Assembly: GCA_036395195.1 (NCBI GenBank)
Contig: DASWDP010000051.1
Location: 1 to 48,509, forward strand
Direction: 5' to 3'
DNA from: Gemmatimonadales bacterium
GTDB taxonomy: Bacteria > Gemmatimonadota > Gemmatimonadetes > Gemmatimonadales > GWC2-71-9
Length of the DNA stretch: 48,509 bases
Shown here: positions 768-44,760 of the stretch, in pieces
How positions within the stretch are numbered: the first letter of the stretch is position 1
How the letters are laid out: every line of letters begins with the position of its first letter
Notes under the pieces: model-generated
The model's database searches: none
What the model was told of the DNA's origin: nothing
The model's input: the letters and a program-made list of their open reading frames with translations, nothing else
Program-made: the position numbers and the translations under genes

Positions 768-807
768 ACGCGTCTGTGCGCCTCGGCGTCTAGGCGTCTC
801 GTCGTTT
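768..807 (+). repeat. tandem octamer array (ACGCGTCT GTGCGCCT CGGCGTCT AGGCGTCT CGTCGTTT) directly abutting the 5' end of tRNA-Ser(GGA)
   Basis: Read directly from the sequence. It is complementary to the array at 906-931, with GCGCCTCGGCGTCT pairing to AGGCGCCGAGGCGC with one G-U. Confidence 0.75.
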
Positions 808-894
808 GGATAGGTGGCCGAGCGGCTGAAGGCACACGCCTGGAGAGCGTGTAAACGGGTAACCGTTTCGTGGGTTCGAATCCCACCCTATCCG
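808..894 (+). tRNA. tRNA-Ser, anticodon GGA (class II tRNA with long variable arm); no encoded CCA
   Basis: Acceptor GGATAGG pairs with CCTATCC and the discriminator is G. The anticodon stem is CACGC/GCGTG with loop CUGGAGA. The variable arm is TAAACGGGTAACCGTTTCG and the T arm is GTGGG-TTCGAAT-CCCAC. Confidence 0.93.
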
Positions 895-905
895 CTACGT
901 AACAA

Positions 906-931
906 AGGCGCCGAGGCGCCGAGACGCCGAG
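906..931 (+). repeat. tandem octamer array AGGCGCCG AGGCGCCG AGACGCCG AG, the reverse complement of the CGGCGYCT unit
   Basis: Read directly from the sequence. It can pair either with 768-807 (enclosing the tRNA) or with 993-1024 (enclosing a 60-nt spacer that itself contains GTGGATGTGAGG...CCTCGTATCCAC and the palindrome AGAGGCCTCT at 952-961). Confidence 0.75.
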
Positions 932-992
932 TGGATGTGAGGGCCGAGGGAAGAGGCCTCTCCTCACCCCGCGACTCATCCTCGTATCCACG

Positions 993-1024
993 CGGCGTCT
1001 CGGCGTCCAAGCGTCTCGACGTAA
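993..1024 (+). repeat. tandem octamer array CGGCGTCT CGGCGTCC AAGCGTCT CGACGTAA directly abutting the 5' end of tRNA-Ser(CGA)
   Basis: Read directly from the sequence. It has the same unit and orientation as 768-807 and the same position relative to the downstream tRNA. Confidence 0.75.
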
Positions 1025-1111
1025 GGACAGGTGCGTGAGCGGTTGAAACGGCCGGTCTCGAAAACCGGTGTGCCCGCAAGGGTACCGTGGGTTCGAATCC
1101 CACCCTGTCCG
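1025..1111 (+). tRNA. tRNA-Ser, anticodon CGA (class II tRNA); no encoded CCA
   Basis: Acceptor GGACAGG pairs with CCTGTCC and the discriminator is G. The anticodon stem is CCGGT/ACCGG with loop CUCGAAA. It has a long variable arm and the T arm GTGGG-TTCGAAT-CCCAC. Confidence 0.93.
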
Positions 1112-1154
1112 TGCGCCTGCCCGACCCAGTCGTCTTCCACGCCGGAGGGTCCCG

Positions 1155-1682
1155 ATGCGTTGGATGAAGTCATCGCTGGTCGTGCTCGTGCCGATCGCCG
1201 CGTTGGCGTGCAAGTCCGCCGCGAGGAAGGCCGAGGAAGTGCGGTCCTGCAGCGCCATCACCATGGACGCGAAGGGCGCCGCGCAGTGTCTCGTGCTGCA
1301 GTACAAGTGGAAGCAGGCGGAGGCGCTCGCCGTGGCGACCAAGTTCCAGCAGCAGCAGGACAGCATCGCGCAAACGGCGGCGGATTCGGGGTGGCGCGCG
1401 GATGCCGCGAGGCACGTGAAGGAGGTGAAGCAGTGCGCCGTCGATCCGTCCGGAGAGATCGCCAGCTGCCTCATCGGGTATGGCTGGGCGGACGCCCGGG
1501 CCAAGGGCGCGGAAGACTCGCTGTGGCGCCACGACAGCAAGAAGCACCGGGAGCAGGTGCTCGCGTGTACCCGCCAGCGGCAGATGCAAGCCGGCGCGTG
1601 CCTCCAGCTGTACCACAAATGGAGCCCCGAGCGCGCGCTCGCCGTGGATGATTCGATTCGCCGGGCGCAGATGAGGAGGTAG
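1155..1682 (+). CDS. putative lipoprotein (175 aa) with three internal Cys-pair repeats; function unknown
   Basis: ATG 1155 is preceded by GGAGGG. The signal peptide has the lipobox PIAALAC. The pattern C-x(10-12)-C-L-x-x-Y-x-W occurs three times. The upstream extension to 1068 would run into the tRNA gene. Confidence 0.7.
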   Translation: MRWMKSSLVVLVPIAALACKSAARKAEEVRSCSAITMDAKGAAQCLVLQYKWKQAEALAVATKFQQQQDSIAQTAADSGWRADAARHVKEVKQCAVDPSGEIASCLIGYGWADARAKGAEDSLWRHDSKKHREQVLACTRQRQMQAGACLQLYHKWSPERALAVDDSIRRAQMRR

Positions 1683-2620: not shown

Positions 2621-2638
2621 TTAACTTCCACGCCTGAG

Positions 2639-6955: not shown

Positions 6956-6958
6956 TCG

Positions 6959-15081: not shown

Positions 15082-15971
15082 ACCCCCGTTGTAGGACGCT
15101 ACGACGCTACGTTGTACGAGGTGCGGCCAGGACGGTCCTCGGTGTTATCGTTGGCGTCTTGGCGTCCTGGCGTCTGGCAACGGGGCAGGGCGGTGACTGG
15201 GTTGCCACTCCGGCTCGTCCGACGGTCGGAGATACGATTTGGCTCCAGCGTTTGATTAGCGTACCGGGGGGATGGCGGGTGCGGGCGGGGAAGCTCGAGG
15301 CCACCGAGCAAGTCGAGGCGCTCGGCGACCCCGCGGTGCTCCGGGTTCCAGGAGGGTGGGTGGTGCGCTACCCCGTGGTCGCGTGGGCCCCCGGGGCCGA
15401 GACCATCGCGCTGCCGCCGATCTGGCGGCTCGGTCCCGACGGCCGGGCCGACTCGACGGGCGGTGGCACGGCGAGCTTCACCGTCGCGAGCGTCCTTCCG
15501 GATACGCTGCGTCGGGCGGCGCCGCGGGGGCTCATCGGCCCCCTGCGCCCCGAGCGCCGCAATCCACTCCTGCCGCTCGCCGCCGTCGCCGTATCCGCCG
15601 GCGTGCTCGCGGCCGGGATCGTGTTGCGACGGCGTCCGCCACGCGAGGTCGTCGCCCCGGTTCACGTTCCAGTGGAACATGAGGTCCCGGACGCCCGCTG
15701 GCTGGCCGCCGGGGAGCCGAAGGCGGTGGCCGCGCGGGCGACGTGGCACCTGCGCGCGGCACTCGCCCGCGCGGTCCCCGAGGCGCACCCTGCGCTCAGC
15801 ACGCAGGAGTGCCTCGCCGTCGTCGCGCGGGTCCGGCCCGACGCGCCGGTGCGCGAGCTGCGGGACCTGCTCGAGCAGCTCGACCGCGTGGCGTTCGCCT
15901 CCGCCCACGGCACCGACGTGGCTGGCCTCGCCGCGATGGCCCGCGGGCTCGCCCAGGAACTCGCCCCGTGA
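15078..15971 (+). CDS. membrane protein occupying the DUF4381 slot of Bat/MoxR operons, with an extra ~140-aa N-terminal extracytoplasmic domain
   Basis: It has an N-terminal signal or TM segment, a central TM (LLPLAAVAVSAGVLAAGIVL), and a C-terminal helical region ending in a DUF4381-like ...TQECLAVV...LLEQLDRVAFA. It has ATGA/GTGA overlaps on both sides. Confidence 0.6.
   Translation: MNPRCRTLRRYVVRGAARTVLGVIVGVLASWRLATGQGGDWVATPARPTVGDTIWLQRLISVPGGWRVRAGKLEATEQVEALGDPAVLRVPGGWVVRYPVVAWAPGAETIALPPIWRLGPDGRADSTGGGTASFTVASVLPDTLRRAAPRGLIGPLRPERRNPLLPLAAVAVSAGVLAAGIVLRRRPPREVVAPVHVPVEHEVPDARWLAAGEPKAVAARATWHLRAALARAVPEAHPALSTQECLAVVARVRPDAPVRELRDLLEQLDRVAFASAHGTDVAGLAAMARGLAQELAP
15093..15178 (+). 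repeat. inverted pair of octamer arrays (GACGCTAC x2-3 at 15093-15118; GGCGTCTT GGCGTCCT GGCGTCTG at 15149-15178) inside codons 6-34 of the CDS
   Basis: Read directly from the sequence. The arms pair only when G-U pairs and two mismatches are allowed. The central spacer contains the palindrome AGGACGGTCCT. Confidence 0.55.
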
Positions 15972-16948: not shown

Positions 16949-18633
16949 TGACCTTCGACGCCCCGGTGGTGCTGGCGCTGGCGCCGCTGGTCGGCGGCGC
17001 GATGTGGTTCGCGGCGGCGTGGGCCCGGCGCGCGCGCATCCGGCGCGCGGCTCTGTGGTCGGAAGAGACGGTGCGCCGCGCGCTCGCCGCGGGACGCCTC
17101 GGGCCCACCGCGCTCTCGGTGTCCGCGTTCCTCGGCGTCGTGGCGCTGGCCGGCCCGCGGTGGGGTGAAGAGCGGATCGTGACGGAGACCCGCGGGCTCT
17201 CGCTCGTGATCGCCGTGGACATCTCACGCTCGATGCTCGCCGAGGACGCGCGCCCGAGCCGCCTGGGGCGCGCGCTGCGCGAGGCGCGGCGGCTCCTGCA
17301 GGACCTGGACGGCGACCGGATCGGCCTGGTCGCCTTCGCCGGCTCGAGCTATATCCTGGCGCCGCTCTCGATCGACGGCTCCGCGCTCACGCTCTACCTC
17401 GACGCGCTCGATCCCGACGTCGCCTCCGAAGGGGGGACCGCCCTCGCGCCGGCGCTGCGCCAGGGCGCGGAGCTGCTGCGCGCCGGCTCCGACCTGGCCG
17501 ACCGCGTGCTGGTCGTGTTCACCGACGGCGAAGCGCACGACACCCTCGCCGGGATCGTCGCCCAGGCGGAGCGTCTCCGGGCGGCCGGCGTCCACCTGAT
17601 TCTCGTCGCCGAAGGCGGCCGGGCGCCCGCGCGCATCCCCGTGCGCGACGATCGCCGGACGCTGGTCGGCTGGCAGCGAAGCGACGAAGGCGCGGTGATC
17701 GAGACGGCGCGGCGTGACGACGTGCTGGGCGCCGTCGCGGACGCGGCGCAGGGGACGCTCGTCGCCGCCGACCTCCCCGATCAGGCGGGCGCGGTGCGCG
17801 ACCTCGTCGCGTCGTACAAGCGCGCCCGCGCGAGCGAGAGCCGCGCCGAGCGCGGGCGCGCCCGCGCCTGGGTGCCGCTCATGCTCGCCGCCCTGCTGCT
17901 CGTGGTGCAGGCCGCCACCCGGCGCACCGCGGCGCTCATCGGGCTCGCGCTGATCTGCCTCACTCCGCCGCGGGCGGTGGCGCAGCAGCCGCCCCCCCCC
18001 TCGTCCCCCCCGCCCTCCCGCCCGCGCACGCCCGCGGAGAAGGCGTGGGATGCGCGGCAGCTCGCGCGGGCGCGCGAGGCCTACATGACGGAGCTTGCCA
18101 GGCGCCGCCACGACGATACCGCTTGGTACAACGCCGGGACCGCGGCCCTCGCCGACTCGGACGCCGAAACGGCGCAGGCGGCCCTGACGCACGCCGGCGC
18201 CTCGCTCGACCCCGAGCTGCGGTTCCGCGCCCTCTACAACCTCGGACTGCTGGGGCTGCGCCTCGCCGACGCGGACAGCGCGAACCGCGACGCCCACCTC
18301 ACGGACGCCGAGCGCGCCTACCGCGAGGCGCTGTTGCTGCAGCCGGGCAACGTCGCCGCCAAATGGAACCTCGAGCTCGCGGTCCGGCGGCGCGGCGGCG
18401 GGTCGAGCACCCGGCAGAACGCACCACCCTCGGGCGGCGGCGGGGGAGGCGGCGGGGGCGGTGGTGGTCAGGGGGGTGGTGGCGCCCGGGGCGATGGGGG
18501 GCAGGCCGGAGGACTCAGCCAGGCTCAGGCGGACGAGATCCTCCGGTCGCTCGGCCAGGAGGAGCTGAACACGCGGCGCGACCGCACCGGCCACCTGCGA
18601 CGCGCCGCCGAGCCGGGGGTGAAGGACTGGTGA
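16948..18633 (+). CDS. fused BatB-like vWA domain plus BatC-like TPR domain protein, with a Pro-rich linker and a Gly-rich tract
   Basis: It contains the vWA block VIAVDISRSM, the block LVVFTDGEAHD, a TM segment, TPR-like AWYNAGTAAL...ALYNLGLLGL, then GGGGGGGGGGGQGGGG and the C-terminal block SQAQADEILRSLGQEE. Confidence 0.8.
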   Translation: MTFDAPVVLALAPLVGGAMWFAAAWARRARIRRAALWSEETVRRALAAGRLGPTALSVSAFLGVVALAGPRWGEERIVTETRGLSLVIAVDISRSMLAEDARPSRLGRALREARRLLQDLDGDRIGLVAFAGSSYILAPLSIDGSALTLYLDALDPDVASEGGTALAPALRQGAELLRAGSDLADRVLVVFTDGEAHDTLAGIVAQAERLRAAGVHLILVAEGGRAPARIPVRDDRRTLVGWQRSDEGAVIETARRDDVLGAVADAAQGTLVAADLPDQAGAVRDLVASYKRARASESRAERGRARAWVPLMLAALLLVVQAATRRTAALIGLALICLTPPRAVAQQPPPPSSPPPSRPRTPAEKAWDARQLARAREAYMTELARRRHDDTAWYNAGTAALADSDAETAQAALTHAGASLDPELRFRALYNLGLLGLRLADADSANRDAHLTDAERAYREALLLQPGNVAAKWNLELAVRRRGGGSSTRQNAPPSGGGGGGGGGGGGQGGGGARGDGGQAGGLSQAQADEILRSLGQEELNTRRDRTGHLRRAAEPGVKDW

Positions 18634-20995
18634 TCACGGCTCTCTGGCTGCTCGTCGCGCTGCAGGGCCCCCAAGGAGTGGACGGGGCCGCGCTCGACGT
18701 GACGGCGCGCGTGGACCGCGTGCGCCTGACGGCGGGTGAGCAGCTGTTGCTGACCGTGCGCGCCCGCACGCGCTCGGCCGAGCCGGTCTCAGTGGTGCTG
18801 CCGGCGCTCACCGGGTTCGCGATCGTGGGCTCGCGCGAGGTGACCGAGGTGACGATCGAGGGCCTGGGCGGCCCCGTGCGCACCACCACCCGCGAGCTGC
18901 AGCTGCGGGCGCAGCGTCCCGGCACGCTCGTGGTCGGCCCGGTGCGGGTACGCCAGGGCCGCCGCGAGGTCGGGACGGCGCCGATCACCGTGAGCGTTGA
19001 CAGCGCCGCCGTCGGCCTGGCGACGACGCTCTCCCCGATCGCGCGCAGCCTCATCGACGCCGCGCCGTCCCCGGCACCCTCGCGGAGCGACCGCGTCGCG
19101 CTCACCGTGATTGTTCCGGGCGACTCGGGGCTGGTCGGGCAGCAGTTCGACGTGATCGCAGCGGCGTGGTTCCCGCGGGAGTTGCGCGGGCGGCTGCGCC
19201 GGGCGCCGGTTCTCACTCTGCAAACGCCCGAGGGCGTGTGGGCGTATCCGGGTGCGGCGCCGAGCGAGGTGGCGGCGTCGCGGCTCGTGCGGGGGCAGTG
19301 GCTCGATCTGTTCGTGGCGCACCAGGCGGTGTTCCCGCTCGCGCCCGGGCGCATCGTGATTCCCCCGGCCACGGTTCAGTATGCGGTTCCGGCCAGTTTC
19401 TCCTTCTTCAGTCGCGAGGAGCGCTTTTCGCTGCGGAGCGATTCGCTGCCGGTCACCGTACTGCCTCTCCCAGAGGCCGGACGGCCCGTCGGGGACCAGC
19501 ACGTGGTCGCTCAGGGACTCGACCTCGCGTTGACGATCGATCCGGCCGACAGCCGCGTGGGGGAGCCGATCGACGTGATGGCGACGGTGTCCGGTGTGGG
19601 GAACGTGGCCCTCTGGCCCGAGCCCGCGATCCGGTGGCCGGCCGGGTTCCGCGCCTACGCCGGCGAGACGGGGATGCGGGTCACCCCGCGCGACGGCCGG
19701 ATCGGCGGTACCAAGACGTTCCACTACCTGGTCGTGCCGGACTCGGCGGGCTCGTTCCTGCTGCCGGACGTGCGCTACCCCTACTACGACATCGCCGCCG
19801 GCCGGTACGCCGCAGCGGCCACCGCTCCCCGCGCGCTCGCCGTGGCGCCGGGGATCGAGCCGCGCGCGGCGCGCGCGCTGCCGCCGCTCGCCCGACCCGC
19901 GATCGCGGTGTGGAGCGACGCGCTGGCGCGCGACCTGATCCCGTGGGGCTGGCTCGCGTTGCTCGTCGGGCCGCCGCTCGTCGCGTGGCTGTCGCGCCGC
20001 CGCGGCGCGCCGCGGCTCGCGCCCGACGCGCTCGCGGCGGCGGCGCCGCTCACGCGGCTCGGCCGGCTCGAGCGCGCGTTCCACAGCGTGCTCGCGAACC
20101 ATGTTCCCGACGCGCAGGCGCGCGACGGGGACGGCCTGGCGCGGGCGCTGCGCGCGTCGGGCGTCGAGAACGCGGTGGCCGATCACGTGATGCGGCTGCG
20201 CGACCGGCTGCGCGCGGCGCGCTACGGGCCCGACGGGCTGGGGGATGCGGTGGAGCTGGCGGCGGAGCTCGAACAGGTGCTGCAGGTGCTCGGTGCAGAG
20301 CCGTCCGGGGGGCGGCGTCGTGTCGCGGCGCTGCTCGCGCTGGTGGCGCTCGCGGCGGCGCACGCGGGCGCCGCGCAGGGGCCGAGCGCCGAGGCGCTGT
20401 ACGACGCGGGCGCGCTGCGCGCCGCCGCCGATTCGTTCGCCGCGCGGGCCGCCGCGGAGCCGGGCGTGCCCGCGCACTGGTACAACCTCGGCGCCACGCT
20501 GTACCGCGCGGCCGCGGACGGCAAGGCGACCGCCGCCTGGGCCGTGGCCGCGCGACTCGCGCCGCGGGACCCGCTGTTGCGGCGCGCCCGCGCCCTCCTC
20601 CCGGCGCCCGACGCCGCGACCGAGCCGCTGCTCGCAGCGGGGCGCGCGACGCCCCACGAATGGGCGCTCGCGGCGGCAGCCTGCTGGTTGGTCCTCTGGG
20701 GCGCGGTCATCGCACGGCGGCGGCGCACCGTCGTGATCGGCCTCGCGGTCCTCACCCTCCTGGCGGCGGGGCTCGGCGGGCTCGCCGCGGCGCGGCGGGC
20801 GCGGCCCGTGGCGGTCGTGATCAATCCCGGGACGCAGGTGCGCGTCGCCCCGTACGGCGGGGCGAGTCCCGTGTCCACGGTCGAGCCGGGTGCGGCGCTC
20901 CTCGTGGCGCGGCGCTACGGGGGGGGCGCCTGGCTCGAGGTGCGCCGCGCGGACGGCGTGCACGGCTGGGTGCTCGCCTCCGAAGTGGTGCGGTT

Positions 20996-20999
<4 letters not shown>
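18630..20999 (+). CDS. fused BatD-like (oxygen tolerance) plus TPR plus C-terminal SH3b (BatE-like) protein, 789 aa
   Basis: The N-terminal BatD-type repeats resemble VDRVRLTAGEQLLLTVRA...F.IVG. A TPR block (HWYNLGATLYRAAADGKA) follows, then TM segments and the C-terminal SH3-like block GAWLEVRRADGVHGWVLASEVVRL. There is a GTGA overlap upstream. Confidence 0.8.
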
Positions 21000-22726
<1,727 letters not shown>

Positions 22727-22729: not shown

Positions 22730-23716
22730 TTGACGGTGCCGCACCGACCGCTGGTCCCGGTAATCGTCGGTCCCACCGCCGTCGGGAAGACGGCGGTCGC
22801 GGCCGCGTGGGCCGGGCGTGCAGCGGTCACCGTCATCTCGGCGGACGCGCGCCAGGTGTACCGGCCACTCGACATCGGGACAGCGAAGCCGGATGCCGAG
22901 CTGCGGGCGCGCGTCCCGCACGTGGGGCTCGATCTGATCGATCCGGGGGAGCGCTACAGCGCGGGGCGGTTCGCGCGCGACGCCGCGGAGTGGCTCGGCG
23001 CGATCCGCGCCGCGGGGCGGCAGCCGGTCATCGTGGGCGGCACCGGTTTCTACGTGCGGGCGTTGGCCGAGGGGCTGTTTCGCGAGCCGCCGCTCGACGC
23101 GGCCCGGCGCGACCGGCTGCGCCGCTGGAGCGCGCGGCTCTCCGCCGCCGAGCTGGCGCACTGGGCGGCGCGACTCGACCGGCGGTTCGCCGGTGGCGGC
23201 CGGCAGCGCGCCGCCCGCGCGATCGAGGTCGCATTGCTCACCGGGCGCGCCCTCAGCTGGTGGCAGGAGCACGCGCGCGAGACGGGGGTCATGCGCCCGT
23301 GGTACATTCATCTCACACTGCCGCGGGACGCGTTGCACCGGCGGATCGCCGAGCGGGTGGATCGCATGCTCGCCGCGGGGCTGGTGGACGAGGTGCGGCG
23401 CGTGCTCGCCGCCGGCGTATCGCCGGGCGCGCCCGGGCTCGACGGCGTCGGCTACCGCGAGGTGGTGGCGCTGCTCGAAGGGCGGATTCCCGAGGCGGGC
23501 CTGCGGGACGCGATCGTCGCGGCGACCCGGCAGTACGCGAAGCGGCAGCAGACGTGGTTTCGACATCAACTGCGGGACGAGGGACGGGGGACGGGGGACG
23601 GGTCGGTGTGGATGCTCGATGCGACGGACGAACCCAACGTGCTCGCCCAACGGATCGTGGAACGCTGGCATGCGATCACCCGTCCCCCGTCCCCCGTCCC
23701 CCGTCCCGTTCGCTGA
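22730..23716 (+). CDS. miaA: tRNA dimethylallyltransferase
   Basis: It has the P-loop VIVGPTAVGKTAVA plus ADARQVYRPLDIGTAKP, VGGTGFYVRAL and RQYAKRQQTWFRH. The start is TTG 22730 (GTG 22736 is an alternative). Confidence 0.93.
   Translation: MTVPHRPLVPVIVGPTAVGKTAVAAAWAGRAAVTVISADARQVYRPLDIGTAKPDAELRARVPHVGLDLIDPGERYSAGRFARDAAEWLGAIRAAGRQPVIVGGTGFYVRALAEGLFREPPLDAARRDRLRRWSARLSAAELAHWAARLDRRFAGGGRQRAARAIEVALLTGRALSWWQEHARETGVMRPWYIHLTLPRDALHRRIAERVDRMLAAGLVDEVRRVLAAGVSPGAPGLDGVGYREVVALLEGRIPEAGLRDAIVAATRQYAKRQQTWFRHQLRDEGRGTGDGSVWMLDATDEPNVLAQRIVERWHAITRPPSPVPRPVR
23574..23708 (+). repeat. inverted pair of heptamer arrays, (GGGACGR)x4 at 23574-23608 and (CGTCCCC)x4 at 23678-23708, with a ~70-nt spacer, at the miaA 3' end
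   Basis: Read directly from the sequence, with more than 20 nt of near-perfect complementarity. The arms encode GRGTGDG and RPPSPVPRPV and bracket the conserved C-terminal block VWMLDATDEPNVLAQRIVERW. Confidence 0.85.
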
Positions 23717-26456: not shown

Positions 26457-27196
26457 CGCTCGACGGCGTGCCCGCGGGCGACCTGGCCCCGCGCTGGGGC
26501 GTGCCGCGGTGCGAGCTGGTCGCGCGGCTCGGCTCGACGCTCGACGCGGCGCACCACCTCGGAGCGGCGGGTGTCCCCGCCGGCACGACGCTGATCGCGG
26601 AGGAGCAGACGGCGGGGCGCGGGCGCGACGGGCGCACGTGGCATTCGCCCGCGGGCGGCGTGTGGCTCGCCATGCTGCTCAGGCCGGCGCGCGCGGAGCT
26701 CGGCGCCGTGTCGATCCGCGCCGGCCTGGCGCTCGCCGACGCGGTGGACGCCCTGCTCGGCCGCGCCGAGACCCGCCTCAAGTGGCCGAACGACGTGCTG
26801 CTGGGCGACCGCAAGCTCGCCGGCATCCTGTGCGAGGGGCGCTGGCAGGGCGTGGCGCTCCAGTGGCTCGCCGTCGGCGTCGGGGTGAACGTGTGCAACG
26901 CGATCCCCGCCGACGTCGCGCGGCGGGCGGTGGCGCTGCATGAATGGCTCCCGGCGGTCCGCCGGATCGACCTGCTCGACCGCCTCGTCCCCGCCCTCGC
27001 CCGCCTCTCCGCGAGCGAGCCCGCGCTCTCGGTCGACGAGCGCGCCGCCTTCGCCGCGCGGGACTGGTTGCGCGGGCGCGAGCTGCGTGCGCCCGCCGCG
27101 GGGCGCGTCCGGGGGGTCGGTCCCGACGGCGCCCTGCTCGTGGACGCCGGCGGGGGGACCGTCGCCGTGCGCGAGGGGCGCGTCGAGCTGGCGTGA
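26444..27196 (+). CDS. birA: biotin--[acetyl-CoA-carboxylase] ligase (class I, no N-terminal HTH)
   Basis: It contains EEQTAGRGRDGRTWHSPAGGVWLAMLL and KWPNDVLLGDRKLAGIL. The start is GTG 26444, overlapping uppP by 13 nt. Confidence 0.88.
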   Translation: MAGLTLDGVPAGDLAPRWGVPRCELVARLGSTLDAAHHLGAAGVPAGTTLIAEEQTAGRGRDGRTWHSPAGGVWLAMLLRPARAELGAVSIRAGLALADAVDALLGRAETRLKWPNDVLLGDRKLAGILCEGRWQGVALQWLAVGVGVNVCNAIPADVARRAVALHEWLPAVRRIDLLDRLVPALARLSASEPALSVDERAAFAARDWLRGRELRAPAAGRVRGVGPDGALLVDAGGGTVAVREGRVELA

Positions 27197-27263
27197 GAGG
27201 GGACGGTAGAAGACGGTAGAGGACGGTAGAGGGCGGTAGAGGACGGTAGAGGACGGCGAGAGG
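27197..27263 (+). repeat. left arm: six tandem decamers (GGACGGTAGA AGACGGTAGA GGACGGTAGA GGGCGGTAGA GGACGGTAGA GGACGGCGAG)
   Basis: Read directly from the sequence. Confidence 0.95.
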
Positions 27264-27345
27264 ATCGCTCCCGCCGCCTCATTTTGTCACCGCCGGCAAC
27301 GATACGGTCCGACGGCCCGCCATGCCGGCGGTAGGTTGGGTCCGT

Positions 27346-27708
27346 ATGGCACCCTATGAGCAACTCAGAGCATGGCAGGAGTGTCACAAGCTCGTGCTCG
27401 AGACCTACCGAGCAACGAAGTCGTTCCCGAGGGAAGAACTCTACGGCCTGACGTCTCAGGCACGGCGAGCTGCGTTTTCGGCCGCCGCGAACATCGTCGA
27501 GGGATCATCCAAGCACGGCGCGCGAGAGTATCGTCGGTTTCTCGACATCACGATCGGTTCGCTGGCGGAGCTCGGGTACACCTTTCGCGTCGCAAGAGAA
27601 CTCGCGATGCTGTCGAGCCCGGATTGGGACGCGTTGGAGGATCTGCGACAGCGAGCGGGGTTCCTGACGTGGCGACTGTACAGGTCACTGGGCGACCGAG
27701 GGCGCTGA
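27346..27708 (+). CDS. four-helix-bundle protein (23S rRNA intervening-sequence protein / Avd-like family), ~120 aa
   Basis: YEQLRAWQECHKLVLETYRATKSFPREELYGLTSQARRAAFSAAANIVEGSSK...FLDITIGSLAELGYTFRVAREL is the typical pattern of this family. ATG 27346 is preferred over ATG 27322. Confidence 0.85.
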   Translation: MAPYEQLRAWQECHKLVLETYRATKSFPREELYGLTSQARRAAFSAAANIVEGSSKHGAREYRRFLDITIGSLAELGYTFRVARELAMLSSPDWDALEDLRQRAGFLTWRLYRSLGDRGR

Positions 27709-27714
27709 GACCTT

Positions 27715-27753
27715 CGCCCTCTACCGTCCTCTACCGTCTTCTACCATCTTCTT
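27715..27753 (+). repeat. right arm: about 3.5 tandem decamers CTACCGTCYT, the reverse complement of the left-arm unit
   Basis: Read directly from the sequence. CGCCCTCTACCGTCCTCTACCGTCTTCTACC is the exact reverse complement of 27205-27235, including the order of the variant units. Confidence 0.95.
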
Positions 27754-30420: not shown

Positions 30421-31396
30421 ACGCTGGGGAGGGCGGCTCGCGCCGCTGCTGCTCTTGCCGGCGACGCTCGCTGCCCAGGGCCGTGGCATGGAGCTCCACC
30501 TCGGCCGCTGGTACAACGGCAATCGCGCCGACGTGTACGAGTTCCGCACCAGCTCGCGCCCGGGGCGGGCCGGCCCGTTCACGCACGGGTTCGGCGCCAC
30601 GCTGCTCGTGCACGACTCGCTCGGCCGGCGCCGCGCGTTCTACGGTGTGGGCTACGAAATGCAGGCGTGGCGCGGCCGGGCGACGTTCGGTCCCTATGCG
30701 CTCGCCGGCCTCGCCCTCGGGCTCTCCACCGATACCTCCACCCAGGAGCTCGCCGCGCAGTGGAGCGTCGGCGGCGGGGTCGAGTGGCGTCCCTTCTCGT
30801 GGTTCGCGCTCGGCACGGAGGTTCGCTACCGGCTGGAAGACCGCGGGCCGCGGGGGTTCTGGCGCCCCGCCGGCGACGCGCGCCGGGGGGTCAGTCTTGC
30901 GGCCGGGATCTCGATAGGCTTGGGGAAGGGGGAAGAGGGAAGAGGGAAGGGTGGATACGGAGGTACCCCGGAGCTTCCCCCGCCGGCGCCGCCCACGACC
31001 TTCACGGGGAATGCGGGAGACGTCGTGCAGACTGCCATCGAGTCCCTCGGCACGCCTTACACCTGGGGCGGTACCGCCGACAACGGGTTCGACTGCTCGG
31101 GGCTGATCCAGTACGCGTACGGGCAGCACGGCGTCCGCCTGCCGCGCATGAGCCGCGACCAGGCTCGCGCGGGCGCGGAGGTGACGCCCGTGGTCGACGC
31201 GCTGCGTCCCGGGGACATCCTGCTCTTCTCGGCGCGACCGGGATCGGGTGTGTCGCATGTCGGGATGTACGTCGGCGAGCTGAAGTTCATCCACAGCTCG
31301 AGCCGGGGGGTCAAGCTGTCGCGGTTCGACCCGGCCGATCCGGAGGGTGGTTACTGGCTGGATCGGTGGGTGGGGGCGCGGAGGATCATTCCGTGA
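30404..31396 (+). CDS. NlpC/P60 peptidoglycan endopeptidase fused to an N-terminal beta-barrel-like (OMP-type) domain
   Basis: The C-terminal region has YTWGGTADNGFDCSGLIQYAY...SHVGMYVG (catalytic Cys and His). The N-terminal ~170 aa show alternating-hydrophobic strands (YGVGYEMQAW, WSVGGGVEWRPFSWFALGTEVRY, GVSLAAGISIGLG). The start is TTG 30404 with a signal-like segment; ATG 30488 is an alternative. Confidence 0.8.
   Translation: MPRPTERWGGRLAPLLLLPATLAAQGRGMELHLGRWYNGNRADVYEFRTSSRPGRAGPFTHGFGATLLVHDSLGRRRAFYGVGYEMQAWRGRATFGPYALAGLALGLSTDTSTQELAAQWSVGGGVEWRPFSWFALGTEVRYRLEDRGPRGFWRPAGDARRGVSLAAGISIGLGKGEEGRGKGGYGGTPELPPPAPPTTFTGNAGDVVQTAIESLGTPYTWGGTADNGFDCSGLIQYAYGQHGVRLPRMSRDQARAGAEVTPVVDALRPGDILLFSARPGSGVSHVGMYVGELKFIHSSSRGVKLSRFDPADPEGGYWLDRWVGARRIIP
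30922..30949 (+). repeat. tandem heptamers GGGGAAG GGGGAAG AGGGAAG AGGGAAG in the inter-domain linker, with a single complementary CTTCCCC unit at 30974-30980
   Basis: Read directly from the sequence. It encodes GKGEEGRGKG. Confidence 0.7.
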
Positions 31397-31812
31397 ACCC
31401 TGGGCGTCTTGGCGTCGTGTCGCTTGTGACGGTTTTCAGCGCCTGCGCCCCTGCCTCGCGCTACGAGTCCCCCGACGCGCTGCGCGGCTACGTGATTCTG
31501 ATCACCCGGAAGGATTCGCTCGAACGGCAGATCGCCGACGGGTTGCGGAGCCGGGGGTTCACCGTGCGGACCCACATGAGGGGGGGAAGCCGGCCCACCG
31601 CATACCTGCTCGCCTTCACGTTCCGCGAAACCGAGACCCCGGCGCTGGCCTGGGTGCACGTCCGGCTTGCCGACACACGCACGGGGGCGATCGTGGCTGC
31701 GGTATCGGCTCCCCTCGACTCCCTGGGCCCGACCCCGGCGGCCCGGGCCCGGGCGATCGTCGATTCCCTCGCGGCAAAGCCCTCCCTGCGACGGCCTCTC
31801 CCCCCCTCTTGA
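31393..31812 (+). CDS. putative lipoprotein (139 aa), function unknown
   Basis: GTG 31393 makes a GTGA overlap with the upstream stop, and the lipobox is VFSAC. Codons 4-11 carry the octamer array GGCGTCTT GGCGTCGT GTCGCTTG (31403-31426). Confidence 0.6.
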   Translation: MNPGRLGVVSLVTVFSACAPASRYESPDALRGYVILITRKDSLERQIADGLRSRGFTVRTHMRGGSRPTAYLLAFTFRETETPALAWVHVRLADTRTGAIVAAVSAPLDSLGPTPAARARAIVDSLAAKPSLRRPLPPS

Positions 31813-39356: not shown

Positions 39357-39369
39357 CTCCGGCACCCGA

Positions 39370-39951: not shown

Positions 39952-39955
39952 CGCC

Positions 39956-41248: not shown

Positions 41249-42410
41249 CGCCGCTTGGCGCCGCGCGGGCCCTCCCGCCGTCGTCGGGTTGGCGCTGCTC
41301 CTGGGCGGGATCACGCTCGGCTACGCGTGGGTGGTGGCCCGGCACCTGCGGGACGACGCGCGCGAGACCAGCCGGCTGCTGGGCCGGGCGTTCGCCGGGC
41401 TGAACGATCCGCACCCCGACGCCGCCACCGCCGCGCTGCTCGACCTGGCGAGCCAGGTCCGCTCGCTCGGCGTCCCCCTCGTCGTCACCGATACCGCCGG
41501 CCGCATCACGGCGCTCGACAACGTGCCCGCGGATGTGGGCACCGACAGCGCGCGGTTGCGCGCCTGGATCGCCGCGCTCGACCGGGAGAACCGCCCGCTC
41601 GACCAGCCGGGCGTGGGCACGATCCACTTCGGGGCGCCCCCGACGGCGCGGCGCTTCACACTGCTCGCCCTGCTCGAGGGCGCGGTGCTCGTCTGCCTCG
41701 CCGGGCTGGCGGTGTGGGCCTATCGCTCCCAGGTGGGCGCGGCGCGGGATCGCCTGTGGGTTGCGATGGCGCGGGAGTCGGCGCACCAGCTCGGGACGCC
41801 GCTGATGAGCCTCACGGGATGGATTGCCTACCTGCGGGAAAATCCGGATACCGGCGCCGCCGAGCTGACCGACCATCTTCAGGCCGACGCCGAGCGGCTC
41901 GAGCGGGTCGCCAAGCGGTTCGAGCGCATCGGACGCCCGGCGCGCCGCGAGCCGCTCGGCCTGGGCGCGCTGGCGGAGCGGGTGGTGAGCTACTTCCGGC
42001 CGCGGCTGCCCACGCTCGCGAGCCCCGTCGCGCTGACCCTCGCGGCGACGGGGCCCGGACCCACGGCGCTGGGCGATCCCGTGCTCGTCGAGTGGGCCCT
42101 GGAGGCGGTGATCAAGAACGCGATCGACGCGCTCTCGGGGCGCGGCGGACGGATCGACGTCACGGTCGAGGCGGCGGCGCGCGCCGCCCGGGTCCGCGTG
42201 CGCGACGACGGCCCGGGCGTGGCCGCGGAGGTGCGGGCTCAGCTGTTCGAGCCGGGCGTGACGACCAAGCCGGGCGGCTGGGGGATCGGCCTCGCGCTGG
42301 CGCGCCGCATCGTCGAGCAGCAGCACGGCGGCCGCCTGCTGTACCGGCCGGGGCCGAACGGGCAGGGGGCGGAGTTCGTGCTGGAATTCCCACTCGTGAG
42401 CGCGACGTGA
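41238..42410 (+). CDS. sensor histidine kinase (two TM, HisKA plus HATPase_c); no adjacent cognate regulator
   Basis: It has the H-box ESAHQLGTPLMSLTGW, the N-box VIKNAIDA, the G1 block VRDDGPGV and the G2 block GWGIGLALAR. The start is uncertain: GTG 41238 or TTG 41205, both overlapping the serS 3' end. Confidence 0.85.
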   Translation: MARNAAWRRAGPPAVVGLALLLGGITLGYAWVVARHLRDDARETSRLLGRAFAGLNDPHPDAATAALLDLASQVRSLGVPLVVTDTAGRITALDNVPADVGTDSARLRAWIAALDRENRPLDQPGVGTIHFGAPPTARRFTLLALLEGAVLVCLAGLAVWAYRSQVGAARDRLWVAMARESAHQLGTPLMSLTGWIAYLRENPDTGAAELTDHLQADAERLERVAKRFERIGRPARREPLGLGALAERVVSYFRPRLPTLASPVALTLAATGPGPTALGDPVLVEWALEAVIKNAIDALSGRGGRIDVTVEAAARAARVRVRDDGPGVAAEVRAQLFEPGVTTKPGGWGIGLALARRIVEQQHGGRLLYRPGPNGQGAEFVLEFPLVSAT

Positions 42411-42440
42411 CGGGCATCAGGGTGTCCCCGACGTTGATTT

Positions 42441-42531
42441 CCCAGGCTGAAGCCTGGGCTCGGCCCGACGCTGCCCTAAAGGGTATTGCCCTTCAGGGCA
42501 GTGATGCGCCGAGCCCACCCTTCAGGGTGGG
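42441..42531 (+). other. cluster of three stem-loops with alternative long-range pairing in the 130-nt spacer upstream of uvrD
   Basis: H1 is CCCAGGC-TGAA-GCCTGGG (42441-42458). H2 is CTGCCCTAAAGGG-TATTG-CCCTTCAGGGCAG (42471-42501, one mismatch). H3 is CCCACCC-TT/CA-GGGTGGG (42514-42531). GGGCTCGGC (42456-42464) can instead pair with GCCGAGCCC (42508-42516). Confidence 0.5.
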
Positions 42532-42540
42532 AATACCGGC

Positions 42541-44760
42541 GTGACCCTCGCCCTCAATCCCCAGCAGGAGGCCGCCGTCCGCCATCCCGGCGGGCCGCTC
42601 CTCGTGCTCGCCGGCGCGGGCTCGGGGAAGACCCGGGTGCTCACCGCGCGGATCGCCCACCTGATCCAGGAACGGGGCGTCGCGCCCTCGCGCATCTTCG
42701 CGGTCACGTTCACGAACAAGGCGGCGGGGGAGATGCGCGCCCGCGTGGCCACGCTGCTGGGCGCCGACCCGCGAGGGCTCTGGATCGGCACGTTCCACGC
42801 CCTCTCCGCCCGGCTGCTGCGGCGCGAGGCCGCCCACCTCGGCTTCGGCCCCAACTTCACGATCTACGACCAGGACGACTCCGAGTCGTTCATCAAGCGC
42901 TTGCTCGAGCAACGCGGCCTCTCGCCCAAAGCCCATCCGCCGCGCACGATTCACGCCATCATCTCGGGGGCGAAGAACCGCATGGTGCTCCCCGAAGAGC
43001 TGGGGGCGAGCGCCGACAGCCCGCTCGAACGCGTCGCCGCGGACGTCTACGCCGCGCTCGGCCCGGCCCTCAAGCAGGCCAATGCGATGGACTTCGACGA
43101 CTTGCTGCTGTACCCGCTCACCCTGTTCCAGGAGCATCCCGAGCGGCTCGCCTACTGGCAGCGCCGCTTCGACCACGTGCTGGTGGACGAGTTCCAGGAC
43201 ACCAACGCCGCCCAGTACCGGCTCGTGAAGCTGCTCGCCCGAGAGCACAAGAACTTCTGCGTCGTCGGGGACGACGACCAGGCGATCTACGGCTGGCGCG
43301 GGGCCGACGTGCGGCACATGCTGTCGTTCCAGCACGATTTTCCCGGCACGACGCTCATCAAACTGGAGCAGAACTACCGCTCCACGCAGGTGATCCTGGA
43401 CGCCGCCAACGGGGTGATCGCCGAGAACGCGCGGCGGCTCGGCAAGACCCTGTTCACCGCCAAGCAGGGCGGAGACCCCGTCACGTTCCTCACCGCCGCC
43501 GACGAGCGCGACGAGGCCGAGTGGCTTGCGGCCGAGCTGGCGCGCCGCGCGGCGGGCGCCGACGTGCCGTACGAGGGGATGGCGATCCTGTACCGCACCA
43601 ACGCGCAGTCGCGCCCCCTGGAAGAGGCGTTCCGCTTCCGCGGGATCCCCTACCGGCTCGTCGGGGCCGTGAGCTTCTACGAGCGGCGCGAGGTGAAGGA
43701 CGTGCTCGCCTACCTGCGGCTCATCGCGAACCCGGCGGACGACGAGGCGTTCGCCCGCATCGTGAACGTCCCCCGCCGGGGGATCGGCGACGCGTCGTTC
43801 GCGCAGCTCGTGCGCGCGGCGACCCAGTGGGGGAAGCCGCTGCTCGAGGCGGCCCGCGCGGCGGACCGGATCCCCGACCTGCGACCCAGCGTGCGGGAGG
43901 CGTTCGGCGCGCTGGCGCGCCTCGTAGACGAGCTGCGGGCGCAGTGGGGGCAGGCGGACCCCGCCACGGTGCTCGAGCAGCTGGTGTCGGCGGTGGGCTA
44001 CGCCCGCTATCTCGCCGAGGAAGGACCCGAGGGGATCGAGCGGCTGGACAACGTCCAGGAGCTGATCGCCGGAGCGGCCGGGTGGGCGGAGACGGCGGAG
44101 GACGAGGGGACGGGGGACGAGGGAGAGGGGACGGGCGCGACTCTGATCGGGCGCTATCTCACCCAGGCGGCCCTCGTGACCTCCGCCGATCAGGGGACGG
44201 GTGACCCGACCGGCGTGACGCTGATGACGGTGCACATGGCGAAGGGCCTCGAGTGGCCGGTGGTGGTGCTCGCGGGACTCGAGGACGGACTGTTCCCGCT
44301 GGCGCGCGCGGCGGGGGAGCCGGGGGGGCTCGAGGAGGAGCGACGGCTGTGCTACGTGGGTCTCACGCGGGCGCGCGAAAAATTGTATCTCTCATGGGCG
44401 CGTACGCGGTATCGCAACGGCCGGCTGGAGCTGTCGGAGCCGTCACGCTTTCTCGAGGCCGTGCCGCCGAGTGTGCTCGAGGAGCGCAGCACGACGCCCT
44501 CGTGGGATCGCGGTCGCGCGCGCCGCGCGGCGCGCGCGCCGGTCGAAGTGGAGTGGGAAGCCGAGGCGTCGCAGGACGTCCCGCGCTACGTCGCGGGCGA
44601 GCGGGTGCGGCATCGCAAGTTCGGCGGCGGCGTGGTGCGGGCGGTGTCGGGCTCGGGACGCGACCTCAAGGTGACGGTGGAGTTCGACGACCAGGAGGTC
44701 GGAACCAAGCAGTTGCTCGTGGCCTATGCGGGGCTCGAGCGCGAATGGGAGAGTGCATGA
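42541..44760 (+). CDS. uvrD: ATP-dependent DNA helicase, UvrD/PcrA family
   Basis: It has the helicase motifs AGAGSGKTRVLTARIAHL, TFTNKAA, VDEFQDTN, NYRST, VHMAKGLEW and YVGLTRAR. Confidence 0.95.
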   Translation: MTLALNPQQEAAVRHPGGPLLVLAGAGSGKTRVLTARIAHLIQERGVAPSRIFAVTFTNKAAGEMRARVATLLGADPRGLWIGTFHALSARLLRREAAHLGFGPNFTIYDQDDSESFIKRLLEQRGLSPKAHPPRTIHAIISGAKNRMVLPEELGASADSPLERVAADVYAALGPALKQANAMDFDDLLLYPLTLFQEHPERLAYWQRRFDHVLVDEFQDTNAAQYRLVKLLAREHKNFCVVGDDDQAIYGWRGADVRHMLSFQHDFPGTTLIKLEQNYRSTQVILDAANGVIAENARRLGKTLFTAKQGGDPVTFLTAADERDEAEWLAAELARRAAGADVPYEGMAILYRTNAQSRPLEEAFRFRGIPYRLVGAVSFYERREVKDVLAYLRLIANPADDEAFARIVNVPRRGIGDASFAQLVRAATQWGKPLLEAARAADRIPDLRPSVREAFGALARLVDELRAQWGQADPATVLEQLVSAVGYARYLAEEGPEGIERLDNVQELIAGAAGWAETAEDEGTGDEGEGTGATLIGRYLTQAALVTSADQGTGDPTGVTLMTVHMAKGLEWPVVVLAGLEDGLFPLARAAGEPGGLEEERRLCYVGLTRAREKLYLSWARTRYRNGRLELSEPSRFLEAVPPSVLEERSTTPSWDRGRARRAARAPVEVEWEAEASQDVPRYVAGERVRHRKFGGGVVRAVSGSGRDLKVTVEFDDQEVGTKQLLVAYAGLEREWESA
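44099..44135 (+). repeat. heptamer array (GGGGACG GGGGACG AGGGAGA GGGGACG) inside uvrD; a second same-orientation copy GGGGACGGGTGAC lies at 44193-44205
   Basis: Read directly from the sequence. It uses the same unit as the miaA arms and encodes EGTGDEGEGTG and QGTGD on either side of the conserved block RYLTQAALVTSAD. Confidence 0.7.

Follow-up and report, generated by a model that had tools for sequence, protein, structure and literature searches.

Anatomy of the arrays

The window, by which we mean the whole analysed stretch of 48,509 nucleotides from a Gemmatimonadales bacterium (contig DASWDP010000051.1), contains foldback repeats, which are self-matching inverted microsatellite pairs with tandem units of 7, 8 or 10 bases. 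These pairs bracket tRNAs, a small gene and pieces of housekeeping proteins, and all the features given below lie on the + strand. A preliminary description had listed five loci with inverted arrays; all five were found in place, the second of them being the weakest (site A below), and its gene calls agreed with Pfam.

Octamer arrays surround the tRNA-Ser genes. Arm a (765-805), with the unit (YGCGTCTN)n, makes up the entire 5' leader of tRNA-Ser(GGA) (808-895; ARAGORN; Rfam 57.2 bits), which is followed by arm b (906-942), a reverse-complement array (AGRCGCCG)n. Arm c (980-1024) is the leader of tRNA-Ser(CGA) (1025-1111; ARAGORN and Rfam) and adjoins it. Arm b could pair with either of the others: arms a and b are 81-87% complementary (87% for the flanks 782-804 and 909-931) and arms b and c 78% (906-942 with 980-1016), and the region folds at -73.4 kcal/mol (z = -7.0). 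Across 52 distinct related metagenome loci the leader array of tRNA-Ser(GGA) has 0-7 copies, and the hairpin-plus-leader layout of tRNA-Ser(CGA) is also present in L085, L087, L094, L107, L110, L150, L188 and others.

Within genes, the arms are translated. Site B (22015-22132) is a heptamer pair in the MutL inter-domain linker, composed of (GGGGCTC)5, a 51-nt loop and (GAGCCCC)5, in which 22015-22046 and 22100-22131 are 94% complementary over 32 nt and the conserved motif ..VPLEMF lies between the arms (-105.8 kcal/mol, z = -7.2). Site D (23573-23708) consists of (GGGGACG)4, a 74-nt loop and (CGTCCCC)4 around the last conserved MiaA block VWMLDATDEPNVLAQRIVERW, with 97% complementarity over 31 nt (23573-23603 and 23678-23708; -96.5 kcal/mol, z = -7.2). 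Its arm 2 covers the MiaA C-terminal tail; only 9 nt separate the end of this arm from the ATG of the following gene, and they hold the miaA stop codon. Site A (15093-15178), within codons 6-34 of the gene that follows DUF58 in a Bat-type cluster, is an octamer pair that has decayed. It is only about 65-70% Watson-Crick complementary at the DNA level and folds well as RNA through G:U pairs (z = -4.6), while its orthologues in L003, L009, L022, L037 and L051 have clean pairs of 18-29 bp. The coding-site arms flank ancestral coding blocks, and the heptamer loops are host sequence that is also found in genomes lacking arrays, in agreement with the earlier view that functional segments, in-frame coding sequence among them, lie between the arms.

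Some arrays stand alone. Site F (31403-31426), with GGCGTCTT-type octamers, codes for the beginning of a lipoprotein signal peptide and had been described as a single arm. This holds for the window, whose genome has lost the left arm; however, the full pair is kept 3' of the NlpC/P60 stop codon in L020 and L037, which makes site F a right arm, and its loop holds the start codon. The linker of NlpC/P60 contains a lone (GGGGAAG)4.3 array (30922-30951) with one inverted unit only (CTTCCCCC), 22 nt downstream. In uvrD, a lone degenerate GGGGACG-type array (44090-44135) has 73% matches, too few for the partner search (cut-off 75%); inspection by eye of the about 125 nt downstream showed no inverted partner. 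The identical 14-mer noted earlier at 15153-15166 and 31403-31416 was found exactly twice (0.01 expected), in different reading frames.

Distribution and positional conservation

We surveyed 1.34 Mb, made up of the window and 80 related loci. Among 454 short tandem arrays, 111 are accompanied by a reverse-complement array at most 700 nt away, and a single one by a direct copy. The paired arms come from periods 7, 8 and 10, and periods 6, 9, 12 and 15 give only 4 of 404 arrays. Paired arms reach 12.1 per 100 kb in the ingroup, compared with 0.21 in syntenic outgroup loci (58-fold fewer), and the host range of the pairs is one family-level group of soil Gemmatimonadales. Generally, the positions are conserved: the mutL-linker, miaA-tail, birA/coaX and Bat-gene pairs occur at identical positions in dozens of Gemmatimonadales genomes, at least 15 genomes have a pair with other units at the mutL site, and the next ATG lies 3-10 nt past miaA arm 2 in dozens of genomes. 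For six of the 7 sites, a cistron boundary is no more than about 100 nt away.

These counts bear out the earlier claim that composition is not the cause. That the arms are a chance product of a 72% GC genome, or G-quadruplex or i-motif structures, is scarcely credible. The window mutL and miaA arms do carry at least four G-runs, and G4 formation was shown for Xanthomonas and Nostoc heptamers (PMC4692102). However, many orthologous arms are built from GACGTCA, TCGGTCA or GCTATCG, and these, like GTCCTCA, cannot form G4; because such arms have no G-runs, the G4/i-motif idea fails, and G-richness, once proposed as a general property, does not hold. The ratio of inverted to direct partners, the outgroup density and the folding controls, in which shuffles never fold as well as the loci, also contradict both ideas, and for the heptamers we reject them on the comparative data.

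Compensatory unit turnover

The unit at orthologous sites varies by lineage (GGGGACG, GACGTCA, GGGAGAC, TCGGTCA and others), and arm 2 complements arm 1 of its own genome. The score of arm 1 against arm 2 is 16.0 within the same genome and 6.9 across genomes. With a structure-blind alignment, double changes occur in 28 of 30 pairs, and covariation is 0.328 compared with 0.144 after shuffling, a value reached by 0 of 500 shuffles. Close relatives show 15 compensatory doubles where about 3 are expected. Among relatives, orthologous sites have a pair, lack it or carry one made of other units. Two earlier points are supported, namely that the two arms of a pair resemble each other and no genome-wide consensus, and that the constraint is on nucleotides rather than peptides; the comparison strengthens both considerably, in that units change at shared sites and the arms are always self-complementary. 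That every pair has its own unit is true in part; the octamers share a GCGTC core, common to different sites and genomes, and the decamers share GRCGGTRGAG.

The arms are about 92% complementary. Their mismatches comprise 80 G:U (G:T), 83 A:C and 115 transversions (41%), and without a G:U bias the complementarity looks maintained at the DNA level. This result bears on the possibility, which we hold only tentatively and think rather unlikely, that the pairs are selected cis-acting RNA stems, that is, leader-trailer or intracistronic duplexes of 20-39 bp which RNase III cuts or translating ribosomes melt, with the tandem build being the mode of stem growth. Such stems might release tRNAs and the mRNA of the intervening-sequence protein (IVP) from polycistronic transcripts, set mRNA half-life, or couple translation at tight gene junctions. 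Besides the absent wobble bias, coding arms show a reversed one (32 G:U vs 50 A:C), a 30-bp RNase III site within the mutL ORF would destroy the message, individual pairs are lost in many relatives with no replacement stem there, and Rfam gives no matching family. For the RNA stems speak the very stable folds (z = -4.6 to -7.2; at z = -7, 0 of 200 shuffles are as stable), a mild sense-strand G:U excess in the tRNA-spacer hairpins (44 vs 25 A:C), and the mainly G:U pairing of site A. The layout also fits: arms adjoin mature tRNA ends and enclose the whole IVP ORF, miaA arm 2 ends just 5' of the next ATG, and the site F start codon lies within the loop. Moreover, site positions are conserved and arms diverge more slowly among relatives than the intervening coding loop (12.9% vs 21.9%), and RNase III is known to act on the stems of 23S rRNA intervening sequences with a gene of the IVP family.

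Cassette polymorphism at birA/coaX

The decamer pair lies between birA and coaX. Its internally repetitive left arm, (GGACGGTAGA)5.6 (27197-27256), and its right arm, (TCTACCGTCY)3.3 (27715-27753), enclose as cargo a four-helix-bundle gene of the 23S rRNA intervening-sequence protein family (27322-27708; PF05635, E = 1.2e-26), and together they form the IVP cassette. The arms are 97% complementary over 34 nt (27202-27235 and 27715-27748), including a perfect 31-mer. In many relatives the site is empty, with 6-7 nt; others contain full cassettes or internally deleted remnants (L009, L004, L031, L194), and the cassette is inverted in L019, L022, L057 and L009. The site has been colonised repeatedly by different hairpins. 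The decamers travel with the four-helix-bundle gene, and array arms flank an IVP gene at three unrelated sites (birA/coaX, S9 peptidase/acyl-CoA dehydrogenase, and near lptD). In its behaviour this cassette resembles a mobile or invertible foldback element, unlike the other pairs.

It is quite improbable that the pairs in general represent small mobile elements of the MITE, REP or RPE-like palindromic kinds which inserted into genes in-frame. The decamer class fits this idea, with its empty sites, full and deleted cassettes, the repeated colonisation of birA/coaX and its arm family at other loci. For the heptamers, however, a simple MITE insertion is rejected, since the loop is ancestral host coding sequence and there is no arm consensus between sites; the unit at each site is its own and evolves in place, and neither a transposase nor a RAYT gene was seen.

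The two orientations of the cassette between identical flanks also raise the idea of genetic switches, in which arm recombination flips the segment or a one-unit slip shifts the frame, so that mutL (and miaA, uvrD) would become a reversible mutator switch. We consider it very improbable. Indeed, no unit length is a multiple of 3 nt, Salmonella has known repeat-based mutL switches, and the mutL frame of L027 changes within the linker arrays, but this change is located at a run of 9 G and may be an assembly error. In all other genomes the ORFs are intact, and variant units stand at precisely those places where a stop codon would otherwise arise. The orientation is forward in all 47 miaA loops and every mutL loop, Pfam detects no recombinase nearby in the window, and the same design is found at tRNAs and ordinary metabolic operons.

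Comparison with known systems

In Leptospira, Coxiella and Salmonella, 23S rRNA intervening sequences with an S23p/four-helix-bundle ORF (PF05635) are excised by RNase III at the flanking stem. The IVP cassette shares with them the gene family, an ORF within long inverted repeats (the stem would be about 30-39 bp) and a patchy presence among relatives. It differs in lying between protein genes and not in rRNA helices, and in its tandem 8-10-mer arms and two orientations.

REP, BIME and REPIN elements and the in-frame Rickettsia palindromic elements (RPE) (PMC3116915) are families that each follow one consensus across the genome and are inserted whole, and REPINs need RAYT transposases. They resemble the window pairs as short hairpin-forming repeats at operon junctions, and RPE, like the window arms, are tolerated in-frame within proteins; here, no consensus is shared and two arms stand on either side of pre-existing sequence.

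The earlier statement that no such class had been described was too strong. Heptameric repeats are known from Xanthomonas (GGGAATC) and Nostoc/Anabaena (GGGGAYT, STRR), and each Xanthomonas genome has 70-75 pairs that are inverted and convergent (Rehm et al. 2015, PMC4692102). Like the window pairs, they are tandem heptamers with about four copies preferred, form many nearby inverted pairs, lie beside ORF ends, are transcribed, and keep the pair or single state between related species. Locus-specific units and coding locations do not form part of that report. In those genomes one unit is used genome-wide in largely intergenic arrays read as G4 motifs, whereas here units differ by locus and lineage and are co-rewritten on both arms, G-richness is not conserved, and arms are found within ORFs, with conserved coding blocks, tRNAs or a gene between them. 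As far as could be found, the literature holds no bacterial description of such co-rewritten complementary arms.

Foldback transposons with internally repetitive terminal inverted repeats, such as Drosophila FB and Galileo (PMC3573991), likewise have arms of short tandem subrepeats, variable copy number, optional central cargo and an association with inversions. These eukaryotic elements are of kilobase scale, depend on a transposase and have one arm family in all copies, while here the arms are 20-60 nt, no transposase was seen and most pairs enclose host sequence. Finally, template-switch mutations build and mend hairpin stems (Monttinen & Loytynoja 2022, PMC8794818) and expand inverted repeats in yeast promoters (PMC13100816). 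They would match the window pairs in making a perfect reverse-complement copy in one step, in homogenising and extending arms, and in giving multi-base "compensatory" changes without a G:U intermediate, but they are known for ordinary stems, not in combination with microsatellite arrays and not as a recurrent clade-wide feature.

Proposed origin of the foldback repeats

The explanation we favour, to which we give an even chance, is that the foldback microsatellites are made and homogenised by replication slippage and template switching between arms, and are kept where extra sequence is tolerated, giving transcript stems of 20-39 bp. A unit of 7, 8 or 10 nt is amplified in tandem, and a reverse-complement array is found 20-500 nt off on the same strand. 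Slipped-strand mispairing within an array would lead to unit gain, loss and turnover, and template switching or gene conversion would copy one arm onto the other, so the unit would be rewritten over time with the arms still about 92% complementary. The variable tRNA leader copy number and the unequal arm lengths in L011 and L044 suggest slippage; variant units in mirror order (15 of 46 pairs) and the perfect decamer 31-mer point to arm-to-arm copying, and template switching is known to create, homogenise and extend hairpin arms (PMC8794818, PMC13100816). Arrays would persist at tolerant places, such as cistron junctions, C-terminal tails, signal-peptide starts, a disordered linker and tRNA spacers, and where deletion is hard: within genes a one-unit slip would shift the frame, the unit not being a multiple of 3 nt, and hairpin-mediated deletion would take out an essential loop.

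Several observations weigh against slippage and arm copying. Long retention at fixed positions throughout a family-level clade has the look of purifying selection rather than neutrality, as does the slower divergence of arms than of the coding loop; the sites near cistron boundaries also fit a role in polycistronic RNA, and the tRNA-spacer hairpins have their mild G:U excess. Sequence-specific recognition is suggested by the conserved octamer core GCGTC, the outcome for mirror order is mixed, with 31 of 46 pairs not significant, and persistence "frozen by frame" cannot account for intergenic octamer and decamer arrays.

In conclusion, when transcribed the arms must form 20-39-bp stems around the bracketed segment, long enough for RNase III, and these are plausible substrates of that enzyme or plausible coupling devices, as a consequence of the arrays rather than a demonstrated reason for their existence.

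Genes of the window and verification of the arrays

The GC content of the window is 72%, and MiaA similarity places it in an uncultured soil Gemmatimonadales lineage, whose closest MAGs are ~79% identical. Gene calling by GC3 frame plots and Pfam agreed with the annotation in the preliminary description: a DUF58/VWA/BatD cluster, mutL (ending at 22726), miaA (22730-23716), a GT4 gene, UbiA, birA (ending at 27196), a gene for a 128-aa PF05635 "23S rRNA intervening sequence protein" (27322-27708; Pfam E = 1.2e-26), coaX on the other side of this gene from birA, an NlpC/P60 gene and uvrD. Two tRNA genes, tRNA-Ser(GGA) and tRNA-Ser(CGA), lie at 808-895 and 1025-1111.

The preliminary description had reported five loci with inverted pairs of short G-rich tandem arrays, each pair with its own unit. 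All of these arrays were recovered with TRF and an inverted-repeat finder, and the arms contain 3-7 copies (TRF and partner search). Heptamers (GGGGCTC, GGGGACG and GGGGAAG), octamers and decamers all occur within this one window. The two arms are 94-97% complementary across 31-34 nt in the mutL pair (22015-22132), the miaA pair (23573-23708) and the decamer pair between birA and coaX (27197-27753), 78-87% complementary around tRNA-Ser, and merely ~65-70% complementary at the DNA level in the Bat-cluster gene (15093-15178). When four loci were folded as RNA with both arms included, all of them were far more stable than shuffles (z = -7.2, -7.2, -7.0 and -4.6), and 0 of 200 shuffles were as stable as the native folds. 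The repeated 14-mer described earlier occurs twice, while 0.01 occurrences are expected. The observation is confirmed, and it is extended here.

Some other repeats and small features are also present. Just 5' of uvrD lies an imperfect palindrome with 45-nt arms (42439-42533) that consists of three short hairpins, one of them CCCAGGC-TGAA-GCCTGGG and the others two copies of CCCTTCAGGG. It does not belong to the tandem-array type, and its motif has no enrichment elsewhere in the window. Around the predicted start of a BatD-like ORF (18045-20999 in the longest call) there is a C-rich GCCCCCCC-type array (17988-18025), and the C-terminal half of MutL contains (GGGGGCGCG)x4 (22487-22522). Neither has an inverted partner, and both look like ordinary coding repeats. 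Besides, an apparent small ORF on the minus strand (445-702) is divergent from the tRNA-Ser operon, in a 320-nt "intergenic" stretch.

Pairing of arrays beyond composition

We combined the window with 80 syntenic loci into a set of 1.34 Mb. The study as a whole covered 10 kb on either side of miaA, the surroundings of tRNA-Ser and a few sites of the PF05635 gene. Among 454 arrays of period 6-12, 111 have a reverse-complement match within 700 nt, while only 1 has a direct match within this distance. Only arrays with periods 7, 8 and 10 form pairs, apart from a few with longer ones (13, 14, 16, 17 and 19), and among arrays with periods of 6, 9, 12 or 15 pairing is almost absent (4 of 404). The density of paired arms is 12.1 per 100 kb in ingroup loci versus 0.21 in the syntenic loci of other Gemmatimonadota. 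Because inverted partners far outnumber direct ones, the periods are restricted and the density differs so much between ingroup and outgroup, composition is ruled out as the cause, as had been argued from the window. Multiples of three are avoided among intergenic pairs too, where the reading frame does not explain it.

Orthologous sites and turnover of the units

The pairs occupy orthologous positions across dozens of genomes. These are the start of the Bat-cluster gene (site A, period 8), the MutL linker (site B, period 7), the junction of mutL end and miaA start (site C, period 7 or 8; not in the window), the MiaA C-terminus (site D, period 7), the birA|coaX junction (site E, period 10) and a position 3' of the NlpC/P60 stop (site F, period 8), where the window contains the right arm only, at 31403.

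At site D, the distance from the QQTWFRHQ block to the ATG of the next gene is 83-98 nt in array-less genomes and 137-170 nt in genomes with arrays, where one array is inserted ahead of the conserved VWxLDAT...W block and another behind it. The unit depends on the lineage (GGGGACG, GGGGAAD, GGGAGAC, GGGAGYY, GGGGAGC, GACGTCA, CAGCCGT, TCGGTCA, GTCSTCA or GGGATGC), and the arm sequences form 11 clusters, but in each genome its own arm 1 is matched by a reverse-complementary arm 2. The mean complement score of the arms is 16.0 within a genome, versus 6.9 when arm 1 is matched to arm 2 of another genome. The earlier claim that the arms of a pair match each other and share no common consensus is thus right for the heptamers, while the octamers depart from it in having a conserved GCGTC core.

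RNAalifold found no consensus structure at the miaA site, because the repeat register is lineage-dependent, and covariation was evaluated by explicit pair counting and the cross-genome arm test instead. In a MAFFT alignment made without regard to structure, 28 of 30 pairs contain double-sided changes, and the covariation score is 0.328 versus 0.144 ± 0.011 in shuffles (reached by 0 of 500), with an equal score at a slide of -3, since the register varies among lineages. Among close relatives, the arms diverge by 12.9% per side versus 21.9% for the coding loop, and 15 compensatory doubles were counted where ~3 are expected. In the outgroup locus L076 (10900-11024), a GCTATGG / CCATAGC heptamer pair lies wholly 3' of the miaA stop, so that the C-terminal block is outside it; this pair appears to have arisen independently, at almost the same junction.

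Arms inside coding sequences

In mutL and miaA the arms are located inside the ORFs and translated. The MutL ORF is open across both arms in every genome except the doubtful locus L027, and units that could give TAG are variant precisely where TAG would be in frame. An intron-like excision of arm-loop-arm from mutL is thereby ruled out. A gain of foreign DNA in the MutL linker is ruled out as well, for the linker length is similar with or without arrays and the loop carries the ancestral ..PLELF motif.

The preliminary description had also offered G-quadruplexes as an alternative. The arms of the window do contain four or more runs of at least 3 G, but such runs are absent from the GACGTCA, TCGGTCA and GCTATCG lineages. 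Since many lineages use units lacking G-runs at the orthologous positions, the arms are not G-quadruplex motifs, and this reading is unlikely. Rfam, at both gathering and permissive thresholds, returned the two tRNAs in the window and no family for the arms.

A genetic switch, acting through the frame or by inversion, would suit unit lengths that are not multiples of 3 nt, and the PF05635 gene with its decamer arms is found in both orientations across genomes. It is nevertheless unlikely, for the ORFs are open in all genomes bar L027, the mutL and miaA loops are forward in every genome, and no recombinase was found near the pairs. In L027 (9270-9420), the mutL frame changes within the linker arrays, at a 9-G run between GGGGAAG-type arms, which reflects either an off-phase (mutator) allele or a misassembly. 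Another related locus, L043, has an assembly gap at the mutL linker arrays.

The tRNA-Ser locus

A metagenome scan with tRNA-Ser(GGA) as the query gave 120 matching loci. Most relatives have a conserved block ...CCCGTAGCGAAACC..GTATTTACTAC, and from its end (GCGTCTNN)2-7 extends without a gap as far as the tRNA. Such a CCCGTAGCGAAACC..N..GTATTTACTAC block lies directly 5' of the leader arrays at 725-768 of the window and in more than 50 metagenome loci (L083-L198), and it looks like a putative promoter or start region. A sigma-70 scan of this block gave no consensus match, and a sigma-70 and terminator scan at the conserved TATTTACTAC block gave no promoter.

In processing stems of rRNAs and tRNAs, the 5' leader of the stable RNA pairs with its 3' trailer over at least 20 bp. 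In the window, the leader and trailer of tRNA-Ser(GGA) are 81-87% complementary over 23-27 nt, and a leader-trailer stem with a score of at least 14 exists in only 17 of 111 related loci. In 33 related loci, a hairpin between the two tRNAs takes the place of this stem. The spacer to tRNA-Ser(CGA) in relatives is either missing or hairpin-bearing; the 3' arm of the hairpin is the leader array of the second tRNA, and its units in some lineages are AGGTGCGA, CACGTTGCA and CTAGACGT.

The decamer cassette

The decamer pair is a distinct subclass, in which inverted repeats (34-nt arms, 97% complementary) enclose the PF05635 ORF, a four-helix-bundle gene. At birA|coaX, many relatives have an empty spacer of 6-7 nt (CCGCCCC), others contain the full cassette of arms and gene, and L009, L004 and L031 keep internally deleted remnants. 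The window, L002, L028 and L044 carry the cassette on the + strand, while in L019, L022, L057 and L009 all of it is inverted. Unrelated tandem-arm hairpins with units of 13 nt (GACGTCACGGAAA) or 10 nt (GGGAGGTTTG) occupy the same junction in L003 (14444-14576), L005 (9633-9753) and L032 (14440-14520); this junction has been colonised repeatedly.

Within 2 Mb of compared sequence, copies of the gene were found at birA|coaX only. Elsewhere, inverted tandem arrays also flank homologues of the gene in two further genomic contexts, as (GGCGGTGGAG)n between an S9 peptidase and an acyl-CoA dehydrogenase, and (GGTACGGC)11 near lptD. Three more decamer pairs were found in metagenome loci, one with a gene remnant. 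Close homologues are mostly on contigs shorter than 2 kb (protein hits P0001-P0120), suggesting that short-read assemblies break at inverted-array cassettes.

Recurrence at unrelated sites and empty sites in relatives are what a MITE or foldback transposon would leave, and the decamer class matches both, as sampled across different genomes, not within one. However, the loops of the heptamer pairs are host sequence, and a reading of all pairs as MITEs only is unlikely. birA|coaX has no clear target-site duplication, and there is no transposase among the annotated genes of the window. The cassette also resembles the 23S rRNA intervening sequence (IVS), a PF05635 ORF within inverted repeats whose stem is cut by RNase III, but the IVS sits in a 23S rRNA helix, whereas this cassette sits between birA and coaX. 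Rfam detected no rRNA in the window, and a sigma-70 and terminator scan inside the cassette gave no promoter. Judged from its sequence, the cassette is a foldback-like or IVS-like element outside rRNA.

DNA-level or RNA-level maintenance

Six of the seven sites are ~100 nt or less from a cistron boundary within a run of co-directional genes, and the remaining one is a disordered inter-domain linker. This placement fits both arrays that are tolerated only there and elements that act on polycistronic RNA. To separate the DNA level from the RNA level, we compared G:U with A:C mismatches by strand. The 63 stems around miaA contain 1578 Watson-Crick pairs, 60 transversion mismatches, 50 A:C and 32 G:T; the 33 tRNA-spacer hairpins contain 871, 46, 25 and 44, and the 17 tRNA leader-trailer stems 317, 9, 8 and 4 respectively. 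Altogether G:U (80) and A:C (83) are about equal, with weak and opposite trends in coding and tRNA stems, and transversions make up 41% of mismatches. The mismatches resemble unfiltered mutations that are afterwards removed whatever their kind, and not wobble-tolerant selection at the RNA level. A selected RNA role in processing, stability or translational coupling is the less likely alternative, and is most plausible at the tRNA and cassette loci.

Other features bear on how the arms change. The unit number varies, with 0-7 units in the tRNA leader and arms that are unequal in L011 and L044. In 15 of 46 pairs, the order of variant units in one arm mirrors that in the other (a mixed outcome of the unit-order permutation test for whole-arm copying), and the decamer arms have a perfect 31-mer in common. 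Together with the mismatch spectrum, these point to replication slippage within each array, combined with template switching or conversion between the arms, as the putative process. In documented cases, a single template switch can create a stem, repair it or make it longer (PMC8794818; PMC13100816). The best-supported explanation, to which we give about an even chance, is that the pairs are self-templating foldback microsatellites at the DNA level, whose arms evolve in concert. Such microsatellites would persist where their removal would cost a frameshift or an essential loop.

A far more speculative reading, which we regard as improbable, is that the pairs are clade-specific, actively maintained cis elements defined by structure only. 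Tandem-arm hairpins would then punctuate transcripts at tRNA, cistron and protein-domain boundaries, with free sequence and arms rewritten together. Their autonomous member would be the four-helix-bundle (IVS/Avd-like) cassette, whose protein would recognise or propagate such hairpins. If true, this would also explain PF05635-type genes in the loops of rRNA IVS stems.

Comparison with known repeat systems

Of the published cases, the inverted GGGAATC pairs of Xanthomonas (PMC4692102) come closest. The heptameric SSRs of Xanthomonas and Nostoc are likewise tandem 7-nt units of ~4 copies, some in convergent inverted pairs. However, they have one genome-wide consensus unit and are mainly intergenic and G-quadruplex-capable, whereas here several units occur in the one window and the unit differs by lineage at a fixed site, arms are translated in mutL and miaA, and many orthologous units have no G-runs. 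The earlier statement that no such class had been described is therefore to be narrowed: the layout is known from Xanthomonas, while locus-specific co-evolving units and coding locations are not part of that case. REP/REPIN elements are genome-wide extragenic palindromes linked to RAYT, unlike arms inside ORFs with no common consensus. Phase-variable contingency repeats have on- and off-frame alleles among close relatives, whereas the ORFs here are open save in L027. Literature searches on inverted or tandem repeats in Gemmatimonadetes gave no report of the feature, and the phylum is absent from two tree-of-life surveys of inverted repeats and STRs.

Implications

If the DNA-level reading is correct, the pairs would be a test case of stem evolution, in which hundreds of independent "compensatory" changes arise by DNA self-templating without selection on RNA. 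Such covariation could mislead structure prediction that takes covariation as proof of functional RNA. The cassettes may also break MAG contigs, as the short contigs of most homologues and the gap in L043 suggest. For the organisms, conserved motifs of MutL and MiaA are flanked on both sides by 10-residue peptides that are arbitrary and change quickly, and the enigmatic four-helix-bundle family of the 23S rRNA IVS is tied to a foldback-type cassette outside rRNA. If the stems are functional, they would represent a new, sequence-independent punctuation of bacterial operons.
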